Shown here piece after piece: positions 21,001 to 24,000 of a stretch of DNA of 33,803 bases. Within the stretch, counting starts at the first letter, position 1. Every line of letters begins with the position of its first letter. A program made the position numbers. Origin of the DNA: Escherichia coli (lineage in GTDB: Bacteria > Pseudomonadota > Gammaproteobacteria > Enterobacterales > Enterobacteriaceae); assembly GCF_003334335.1 (NCBI RefSeq), contig NZ_QOWQ01000045.1. One strand, given 5' to 3'.

Positions 21001-24000
21001 ATAGTCCTGATTTTCAACGAAACCATATTCAGCAATACGTTCTGTTATCCACGATGCAAAGCGTTTACCAACCCCAAGGAAAGCGTGTAGATTGCGAGCA
21101 TTGCATAGAAGGGCTGCTTGGTTTGAGATAGAACCGTTGAATACGGGGATGAGTTGACTGGTCATGATGACCTCCTTATTTGTTTAGTTTATAACCGCCA
21201 GTTAGTAGCTGGCGGTCGGGTGTCAACTGAGCCAAATAAGAAGCTCTGGGCATATTCCCCTTGCGGGTGTTGTATTACGCCTCTCCACCCGACCTTTGTA
21301 CGGATGTAACTATGCCAAATTGCAGGCATAAAAAAGCCGCAAAGCTATCGGGTGCGGAGACCGCTTATTTGTTCAGTGCGATCAGTATGCGATAGCTCTG
21401 GCGGATTTGTCAAATCGTGCAGTAACATCCTTTTCTTCCTTGCCATTTCTCAATGATGACAAAGGGTGGATTCGGATTGGTATTGGGACAAAAGTGAGAC
21501 ACACAAAGCTTTGCATCGGCTTACAAAGCTTTGCATGTTTTTCAATGTTGGGACGTGTGAGCGCAGAAATGACGGGCTATCTAATTGATTTTAAACGATA
21601 CGTAACCAACTTTAAAATCTTTGCACGCCAGTTCGCAGGTTTTACAGCCAGTACAGCGGCTGGAATCGATAAAAAATCCATATTGTGTGGTCATGGGCTA
21701 CTCCTTAAACCTTTTCGATCTGGACAAGATTGCTGTGCGACGGGTTTCCCTTTGCCAGCGGTGAAGGGCGGTGAGAGGTCAGAATATTGATACTGCCGCC
21801 GTGATCGACCCGGTCACCAAACATATCCGCTTTAAGCCACGCACCTTGCCCGATGGCGGTAACGCCAGGCAGAATACGCGGAGTCACTTTTGCGGCAATC
21901 AGCATTTCTCCATTATTGTTAAATACCCGCACGGTATCGCCATGACGGATACCGCGTGCCTGAGCATCAATGGGGTTGATCCACACCTCTTGTGGGCAGG
22001 CCTGCTGTAACACATCAATATTGCCGTAGCTGGAGTGGGTACGCGCTTTGTAATGGAAGCCCGTTAACTGCAGTGGATAGGTTTTCCGCAGGGGATCGTC
22101 CCAGCCATCAAAACCTGGGGTATACGCAGGAAGGGGATGAATAATTTCATCTTTTTTCAATTCCCAGGTATCTGCAATCTTCGCCAGTCGTTCAGAATAA
22201 ATTTCGATTTTCCCCGAAGGTGTTTTCAACGGGTTTGCCTGTGGATCTTCACGGAATGCGCGGAAAGCGACGTAGTGTTCTTCCGGGCATTTTTTCTTAA
22301 AGATCCCGGTCGTTTTCATCTCCTCGTAGTCGGGCATCTCAGGGTTACGTTCCTTCGTTTTCGCATGGAGATATTTGATCCATTCATGCTGACTGCGACC
22401 TTCAGTAAAGGTTTGATAAACGTCTGGTCCTAAGCGTTTGGCGACTTCACTCAGCATCCAGTAGATGGGTTTGCGTTCAAATTTTGCTGAGGTTGCGGGT
22501 TGGGCGAGGATCACATAGCCCATATTCCCTGCAGATTCATGAGAGATAAGGTCTTCTTGCTCTGTTGGCATCAGGTCGGGCAACAGGATATCGCAATACT
22601 TAGCCGAGGCCGTCATGAAGTGGTCAATGCCAACAATCATCTCGCACTTGCTGTCATCCTGAAGCACCTCATGGGTGTGATTGATGTCGCCATGTTGATT
22701 GATCAATGTGTTACTGGCGTAGCACCATAAAAACTTGATGGGGACATCCAGTTTTTCTTTTCCACGAACACCATCACGGGTCGCGGTCATTTCCGTACCA
22801 TGGTCGATGGCATCTGTCCATGTAAAGACGGAAATCTGCGTTTTAACAGGATTCTCGAGCATCGGGAACCATTCTACCCCCAGATCCCAGCTACCTTCGC
22901 GTACGCCTGAGTTGCCGCCGTTTATGCCGACGTTGCCGGTGAGAACGGAAAGCATGGCAATAGCGCGGGATGTTTGCTCGCCGTTGGAATGTCGTTGTGG
23001 CCCCCAACCCTGACAAATATAAGCAGGTTTTGCTGAACCGATCTCTCGTGCCAACTGGATAATTTTTTCTGCCGGGATGCTGGTGATTTTTGCTGCCCAT
23101 TCCGGCGTTTTAGCTATGCCGTCAGGCCCTTCGCCCAGAATATAGGCTTTATAATGCGCGTTACGTGGTGCGTTGGCGGGCAGCGTTTTTTCATCGTAAC
23201 CAACACAATATTTGTCGAGAAATGGCTGATCGACCATGTTTTCAGTAATCAGTACCCAGGCAATCGCACAGGCCAGTGCGCCATCGGTGCCAGGGCGAAT
23301 GGGCAGCCATTCATCTTCACGCCCGGCAGCAGTGTCGTTATAACGTGGATCGATGACGATCATGCGTGCGTTTGAACGTTCGCGGGCTTGCTCGACGTAG
23401 TAAGTGACACCACCGCCGCTCATCCGCGTTTCTGCCGGGTTATTTCCGAACATAACGACCAGTTTCGTATTGGCGATATCATCTGGGCTGTTGCCATCAT
23501 TGGCACCGAACATATAACTCATTGCGGCACTGATCTGTGCGGTACTGTAGCTGCCATAGCGACTGAGAAAACCACCGCAAGAGTTCATCAGACGGTACGG
23601 GACGTTTGAGTTGGTGATGTTTCCGCCATCTACGCCTGTTCCGTACAGGACATGTACAGCCTCATTGCCGTAATCTTTCAGGATCCGCCGAAGATTATCA
23701 CTGATGGTATCCAGGGCTTCGTCCCAACTTATCCGTTCAAATTTACCTTCACCGCGCTTGCCGACGCGCTTCATGGGATATTTCAACCTATCAGGATGAT
23801 TCATCCGTCGGCGGATAGAGCGCCCGCGTAAACACGCTCGAACCTGATGATTACCGTAGACGTCGTCACCTGTCGTATCAGACTCCACCCAGTACACGGT
23901 GTCATCTTTCACATGCAAACGTAACAGACAGCGGCTCCCGCAGTTAACGGTGCAGGAACTCCAGACCGCTTTCTCTTCTACCGGAGCCTCTGCCGCCCGG

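Follow-up and report, generated by a model that had tools for sequence, protein, structure and literature searches.

How does ynfG, a gene of the ynfEFGH-dmsD operon of Escherichia coli, come to end after 37 codons inside phage DNA, and what would this mean for the rest of the operon? The question is raised by a 33,803-nt stretch of contig NZ_QOWQ01000045.1 (assembly GCF_003334335.1), analysed as a whole and hereafter called the window, for which an original prediction, made from the sequence alone, had proposed a prophage junction inside ynfG. The affected protein is the electron-transfer subunit that links YnfE to YnfH (PMC5203670), and the operon is listed among those directly activated by FNR (PMC3688515). 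Here, we examined both sides of the junction, the phage to which one side belongs and the recurrence of the arrangement among complete genomes. We put at about 95% the probability that window positions 21610–21616 are the attL site of a site-specifically integrated, lambda-type (tyrosine integrase) prophage.

Truncation of ynfG

The truncated open reading frame (ORF), 37 codons and a stop, lies on the minus strand at positions 21581–21694 and is translated as MTTQYGFFIDSSRCTGCKTCELACKDFKVGYVSFKIN*. With the uninterrupted ynfEFGH-dmsD locus of strain DH1 as the reference, the window is identical in the 60 nt that precede ynfG and in the first 85 nt of the gene, and in the alignment similarity is gone after this point. 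Codons 1–28 and one further nucleotide of the ORF are of host origin, while the last nine codons (VGYVSFKIN) and the stop are derived from the phage. Both the translation and the DH1 alignment thus bear out the original description of a frame that begins normally, diverges after about 28 codons and stops after 37, and the alignment that had been suggested as a check placed the breakpoint after nt 85 and yielded the attachment (att) core TTTAAAG.

Membership of the YnfG/DmsB-type subunits asks for a full-length match above the cut-off and for all four Cys groups, the ligands of four [4Fe-4S] clusters (NCBIfam TIGR02951, the B subunit of dimethyl sulfoxide (DMSO)/selenate reductase). Against the TIGR02951 cut-off of 214.1 bits, full-length YnfG scores 264.8 bits, and the 37-amino-acid (aa) product scores 37.3 bits, matching profile positions 1–25 only. 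One of the four Cys groups, group I (C14, C17, C20 and C24; C14-x2-C17-x2-C20-x3-C24), is retained, with groups II–IV being encoded, as judged from the DH1 sequence, in the displaced part of ynfG. In both score and Cys groups, the window ORF falls below what the family requires; it is a fragment of ynfG and no functional member of the YnfG/DmsB family. The same 5′ fragment is labelled a pseudogene in strain G6/7 by the Prokaryotic Genome Annotation Pipeline (PGAP). The GC profile shows a mild dip at the junction (to ~0.43–0.44), which is not diagnostic.

The attachment site

The 7-bp core, TTTAAAG in gene orientation (CTTTAAA on the plus strand), occupies positions 21610–21616 and corresponds to ynfG nt 79–85, that is, codons F27 and K28 and the first base of D29. 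It is the sole stretch common to attL of the window, attB of DH1 and attR, the last being read from strain G6/7 since the integrase end of the window's own prophage lies beyond the window. Up to the end of the core attL equals attB, and from the core onward attR equals attB. Inside ynfG, attB reads …GCAAAGAT-TTTAAAG-ATCTTGGCC…, and the attP predicted from the two junctions reads …GAGCAACAAC-TTTAAAG-TTGGTTACG… (longer right flank TTGGTTACGTATCG). This predicted attP, CAACAACTTTAAAGTTGGTTACG, is found contiguous and as an exact match at the closure of the circular record of the Shigella phage 75/02 Stx (KF766125.2), a Shiga toxin (Stx) phage, and the stretch to be expected for the excised phage is …GAGCAACAACTTTAAAGTTGGTTACG…. 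The presence of one core in attL, attR, attB and attP, together with a tyrosine integrase at the other prophage end in the deposited phage and in related lysogens, upholds the proposal of a prophage junction inside ynfG.

The overlap region of attB is surrounded by a dyad symmetry of 6/7 (CAAAGAT, TTTAAAG, ATCTTGG), and attP contains a perfect 14-bp palindrome, CAACTTTAAAGTTG, which suggests that inverted core-type sites flank the overlap as in lambda-type att sites. The P′ arm, as delimited by repeat analysis and phage comparison, is the non-coding phage DNA that adjoins the core (21300–21609, minus strand); its first 150 nt past the core are identical in the window, 75/02 Stx and phage phiPOC-J13 (POCJ13). 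It carries the palindromic 14-mer ACAAAGCTTTGCAT twice in direct orientation, 20 nt apart at 21503–21516 and 21523–21536, and the motif TTTGTCCCAA at 21483–21492 on the minus strand. On the integrase side, repeat analysis found the two motifs again in the P arm: (G/C)ATGCAAAG stands at −70, +79 and +99, and TTTGTCCCA(A) at −95/−104 and +124, so that both arms are represented. It is plausible that these recurring motifs are arm-type sites for the integrase or sites for an accessory factor.

The two ACAAAGCTTTGCAT copies can also form a 17-bp hairpin (21499–21538, minus strand; RNA dG −23.1 kcal/mol, z −4.4), which is followed by CTCACTTTTG. The pair could bind protein as part of the att arm, could act as a terminator that protects the phage against transcripts coming in from the host, or could do both; in a scan for terminators and promoters near attL, this hairpin of two palindromic repeats was the only notable match. 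A perfect 9-nt inverted repeat, GATTTTAAA and TTTAAAATC (21587–21595 and 21611–21619), straddles the junction with one arm in the phage and the other in the host and core; it is AT-rich and may be due to chance, and it coincides with the cut point of the phage record described below. A tRNA scan of the window found no tRNA genes, and the integration site is therefore not a tRNA-linked one.

The phage and the other end of the prophage

Positions 1–21593 of the window are 100.000% identical, with no mismatch or gap, to positions 39934–61526 of PV340546.1, a record of 61,526 nt that is entitled 'Escherichia phage PhiR5_2, complete genome' and names K-12 MG1655 as the host; the claim that everything beyond the break is prophage accordingly stands. 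Phages of this kind, the PhiR series, serve as a temperate-phage panel (PMC13190303, citing Brenes & Laub 2025). The window holds the right-hand 21.6 kb of the prophage (1–21609, plus strand), of PhiR5_2 type and with a 933W-like podovirus organization. Given that the last 21,593 nt are identical, and that the integrase gene (int) and P arm of PhiR5_2 are 99.9% identical to those of the ynfG prophage in G6/7, the window prophage is almost certainly the same phage as PhiR5_2. The corresponding DNA identities of the integrase and downstream P arm are 99.6% for 75/02 Stx and 99.5% for phiPOC-J13. The PhiR5_2 record differs in that it is linear and does not show the host junction. Compared with the window and the circular 75/02 Stx record, it lacks, between its last and first bases, 25 nt (AACGATACGTAACCAACTTTAAAGT, window 21594–21618) that include the att core; the record was linearized at the att site, with imprecise ends.

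The PhiR5_2 record begins with int, encoding an integrase of 387 aa (PV340546.1 51–1214) that matches Xer/integron tyrosine-recombinase models with an E value of 5e-22. In G6/7, the other end of the prophage lies ~62 kb away and carries, on one strand, int, 52 nt of intervening DNA between the int stop codon and the core, the distal ynfG remnant (ynfG′; 540 nt, annotated as a pseudogene), ynfH, dmsD and clcB. The O104:H4 strain 2011C-3493 (NC_018658.1) has the same int-ynfG′-ynfH-dmsD arrangement. The downstream operon genes had been expected to be displaced or lost; G6/7 and 2011C-3493, the related complete genomes that were examined, have kept the 3′ part of ynfG together with ynfH and dmsD in a displaced position, and by analogy the same probably holds for the window's own genome. 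Searches with consensus patterns gave no convincing terminator in the interval from int to ynfG′, and neither ynfH nor dmsD was found to be preceded by a strong promoter.

These data also bear on the possibility that the window contains a degraded prophage remnant, with ynfG′, ynfH and dmsD having been deleted and not moved. The left end of the prophage lies outside the window, the att-proximal antirepressor gene (ant) is truncated relative to some relatives, and related prophages, e.g. that of G6/7, carry insertion sequences and frameshifts, all of which would be compatible with decay. However, the 21.6 kb in the window are base-for-base those of a deposited complete 61.5-kb phage that has its integrase at the other end and MG1655 as its host, and the distal operon genes are retained in both related complete genomes. 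We therefore regard a degraded remnant as very improbable.

Coding capacity at the two junctions

Integration may also be neutral, when the phage segment rebuilds a functional gene at one of the junctions; phage 21 and e14 restore icd in this way, and tRNA genes are restored by many phages. At attL, the interrupted frame runs through nine unrelated phage codons, which hold no YnfG-like sequence, and then stops. An in-frame GTG within phage DNA, five codons before the core, is all that attR offers as a start, and it would open a 184-aa ORF. This ORF adds only ~5 phage codons and lacks profile positions 1–24, and with them the whole first Cys group. Still, it scores 222 bits against TIGR02951, just over the cut-off of 214.1, and because it clears this threshold PGAP names it an intact 184-aa 'DMSO/selenate family reductase complex B subunit' in the O104:H4 strain 2011C-3493 (WP_000254426.1, NC_018658.1). 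In G6/7, PGAP flags the same remnant, and indeed both ynfG pieces, as pseudogenes. Beyond the core, the flanks of the att sites are no more similar to each other than shuffled sequences, the observed score being reached in 46% (right) and 28% (left) of 2,000 shuffles.

Gene-preserving integration of the phage 21/e14-icd type was rejected in view of these shuffle-like flanks and of a GTG-started ORF devoid of Cys group I, and a functional ynfG rebuilt at either junction seems barely credible. The intact-protein annotation of ynfG′ is an annotation artefact, with no evidence of function behind it. The coding sequence at both junctions argues that YnfG is truly disrupted and that the phage supplies no replacement; with no substitute coding sequence in the phage, the lysogen would have no functional YnfG. 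The predicted loss of the 4Fe-4S electron-transfer subunit agrees with this outcome, since only the first Cys group is kept and no phage replacement is present.

Recurrence among complete genomes

A set of 5,426 complete E. coli genomes was searched with two queries across the junction. The 221-nt junction-spanning query has matches in 5,318 of them, which in rows sampled across the ranking end at window position 21610; the match crosses the junction in only 82 genomes, and a 1.2-kb query returns the same 82. The integrase-side junction, attR, occurs in 89 complete genomes, among them those of the O104:H4 outbreak lineage. The top match of the 1.2-kb query is G6/7, which equals the window in the junction region (100% identity), and strain RM10410 has the attL junction too, with 95.6% identity to the window across 1.2 kb.

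An artefact of sequencing or assembly, which the original prediction had named as a possible refutation and by which ynfG and unrelated phage DNA would have been fused in a chimeric contig, is weakly supported by the lack of any complete genome in the collection that matches the window exactly, and has practically no chance of being correct given the same junction in 82 independently assembled complete genomes, a breakpoint that falls on the 7-bp core common to the reciprocal junction and attP, and the confirmation of the site by junction polymerase chain reaction (PCR) for a phage with a near-identical integrase (PMC4193171). The break in ynfG is neither a chance event nor an assembly artefact, because the identical junction occurs in those independent genomes and because the flank is 100% identical to a deposited phage over 21,593 nt.

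Several points nevertheless count against reading the locus as the attL of an otherwise intact PhiR5_2-type prophage that has inactivated the Ynf reductase. No complete genome of the collection equals the window, the closest reaching 99.0% identity over the prophage part. The integrase-side junction of the window's own genome lies outside the window, and a later deletion or rearrangement of the left end or of ynfG′-ynfH-dmsD could have taken place. The attP of PhiR5_2 itself is deduced from attL and the P arm and not read directly. In some lysogens, PGAP annotates the N-truncated, 184-aa YnfG as intact, and DmsB could substitute for YnfG. An integrated prophage with its attL at 21610–21616 remains our preferred interpretation.

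Prophage genes and neighbouring features

By PHROG assignment and annotation, the gene content of the prophage segment is that usually seen at the right end of 933W-like lambdoid podoviruses, with tail genes and Lom among it. The segment further holds an LPD38 polyvalent protein of 2,789 aa (phrog_616; 8817–17186, plus strand), whose C-terminal part gives a DarB-like antirestriction match, a Panacea-domain protein (17337–17861, plus strand) and the IbrB/IbrA pair (ParB-like and PAPS-reductase-like; 17950–19805, minus strand). The block formed by these last genes adjoins the junction, and all of them are conserved in 933W-like phages. When the cargo genes and the ynfG stub were searched with PADLOC, only weak BrxP/DndC-like matches to IbrA were obtained, and nothing bearing on the junction.

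Between this block and the P′ arm lie ant (20002–20631, minus strand) and a truncated ant of 94 aa (20881–21165, minus strand), annotated by PGAP in G6/7 as 'missing C-terminus'. In many related lysogens, the 1.2-kb query matches in two pieces spanning ~1.63 kb, and two antirepressor genes are annotated there; the att-proximal ant region of the window appears, from this comparison, to carry a deletion of ~0.43 kb. Two full-length matches to the Rfam family RF02221 (sRNA-Xcc1) were found at 20672–20757 and 21206–21294, both on the minus strand, scoring 73.4 and 69.1 bits (gathering score 53), and each lies ~40 nt upstream of the start of an ant ORF. The sRNA-Xcc1 family has been noted upstream of an ORF6N-domain protein in APSE phages. 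The element may thus be a conserved 5′ leader of Ant/ORF6N-type genes, as opposed to a free-standing small RNA.

On the host side, ynfF (21705–24131, minus strand) and ynfE (24189–26615, minus strand) are both intact, each encoding 808 aa; the former matches NF041884 (selenate_YnfF) with 1774.7 bits against a cut-off of 1650, and the latter NF041885 (selenate_YnfE) with 1796.1 bits against a cut-off of 1675. The start of the ynfG stub lies 10 nt past the ynfF stop. About 100 nt upstream of the ynfE start, a pattern match with one mismatch identifies the half-palindrome TTGATATGGATTAA (26715–26728, minus strand), which is of FNR type and probably serves FNR; the control region of the operon is kept in the window.

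Just right of rspB, a second lambdoid prophage, Qin-like, begins with an apparently intact integrase (431 aa) and an excisionase (31976–33542, minus strand); in G6/7, it continues with exo, ydfD, dicB, dicA and dicC. Only ~10.3 kb of host DNA, from ynfG′ to rspB, separate the two prophages. The integration site in ynfG had been described as distinct from that of the neighbouring Qin-type prophage, and the position of the latter next to rspB is in accord with this.

Proposed mechanism and consequences for the host

We propose that the lambda-type tyrosine integrase of the lambdoid, 933W-like temperate phage PhiR5_2 (~61.5 kb) recombined attP with the attB in ynfG over the identical 7-bp overlap, splitting ynfG after nt 85. 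The promoter-proximal piece, consisting of ynfE, ynfF and 28 codons of ynfG, stays under the FNR-dependent ynfE promoter, with the reading frame of the stub entering phage DNA for nine codons before its stop. The distal piece (ynfG codons 27–205, ynfH and dmsD) would be moved to the other prophage end, where it would directly follow int in the same orientation, and three of the four Cys groups would thereby be separated from the first. Expression of dmsD would then require internal promoters or transcription reading through from int, and precise excision of the phage would restore ynfG together with the operon.

Because the electron-transfer subunit YnfG would be lost, the Ynf selenate/tellurate reductase should be inactive in the lysogen, unless DmsB and DmsC take over. 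An interchange of the Dms and Ynf paralogues was reportedly described by Lubitz and Weiner in 2003. It had been suggested that YnfE and YnfF are probably non-functional here unless a paralogous FeS subunit substitutes, and their lack of function is a reasonable inference. In ynfG lysogens, ynfH and dmsD would moreover be detached from the FNR-dependent promoter. Considering that DmsD is also required for the maturation of DmsABC (PMC12096835), such lysogens could differ in selenate or tellurate reduction and possibly in DMSO respiration.

The genes ynfE, ynfF, the ynfG stub and both ant genes lie on the same strand. One may speculate, albeit with little expectation of being right, that FNR-driven anaerobic read-through across attL into the ant genes couples prophage induction to anaerobiosis, or that read-through from int uncouples dmsD, and with it the maturation of DMSO reductase, from control by FNR. 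Transcription proceeding toward ant would first meet the 17-bp hairpin at 21499–21538 and then two sRNA-Xcc1-like leaders. If such coupling existed, ynfG would be a regulatory integration site and not a neutral one.

The relevance of the ynfG insertion lies mainly in annotation and strain physiology, and it offers nothing conceptually new. About 1.5% of the complete E. coli genomes carry a prophage in ynfG and are to be read as ynfG-null, and the N-truncated ynfG′, sometimes named as intact by PGAP, is a pitfall for annotation.

Comparison with known systems

Integration into ynfG has precedents. In Shigella flexneri, phiPOC-J13 inserts into S1742, and in MG1655 lysogens it inserts into the homologue ynfG, as demonstrated by junction PCR (Gray et al. 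2014, PMC4193171); 75/02 Stx uses the ynfG site as well (PMC5447701). These two phages (KJ603229 and KF766125, respectively; Diegovirus, Sepvirinae) have the attachment site of the window, ynfG (S1742 in S. flexneri), together with 99.5–99.6% identity in integrase DNA and an identical attP core followed by 150 identical nt of P′. Their ant/P′ regions are 82.6–89.8% identical to that of the window, and, unlike PhiR5_2, both carry stx1a. That a phage with a near-identical integrase integrates site-specifically into ynfG is thus drawn from the literature on phiPOC-J13, and its extension to the window rests on analogy.

In the Stx-producing E. coli strain RM10410, an Stx1a prophage lies between the two halves of ynfG (PMC10562709), and another Stx1a prophage in ynfG has been reported in a bioRxiv preprint. 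In RM10410 (O113:H4) and CIDM-EC20-1974, a prophage of ~62.5 kb separates the halves of ynfG; these prophages differ from that of the window in being Stx-converting, in their host background and in their diverged sequence. Neither PV340546.1 nor the G6/7 prophage has an annotated Shiga toxin coding sequence, a statement that concerns annotation only and a region outside the window; between the early genes on the ninH side and the esterase/lysis genes, only small hypothetical ORFs are annotated in both. The late region shares its architecture with the Sepvirinae/Diegovirus phages (933W-like), including an N4-gp56-type capsid, a SASA-family esterase and the 2,789-aa phrog_616 protein. The phage and its attachment site are both already known, and the sole difference from the published cases is the lack of an annotated stx.

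Phage 21 and e14 in icd provide a further parallel, in that a lambdoid phage integrates inside a protein-coding gene by means of a tyrosine integrase and a short core. Both of these carry a duplicate of the 3′ end of icd, and the gene stays functional upon integration. The prophage of the window differs from them in carrying no replacement, and its insertion leaves ynfG broken.

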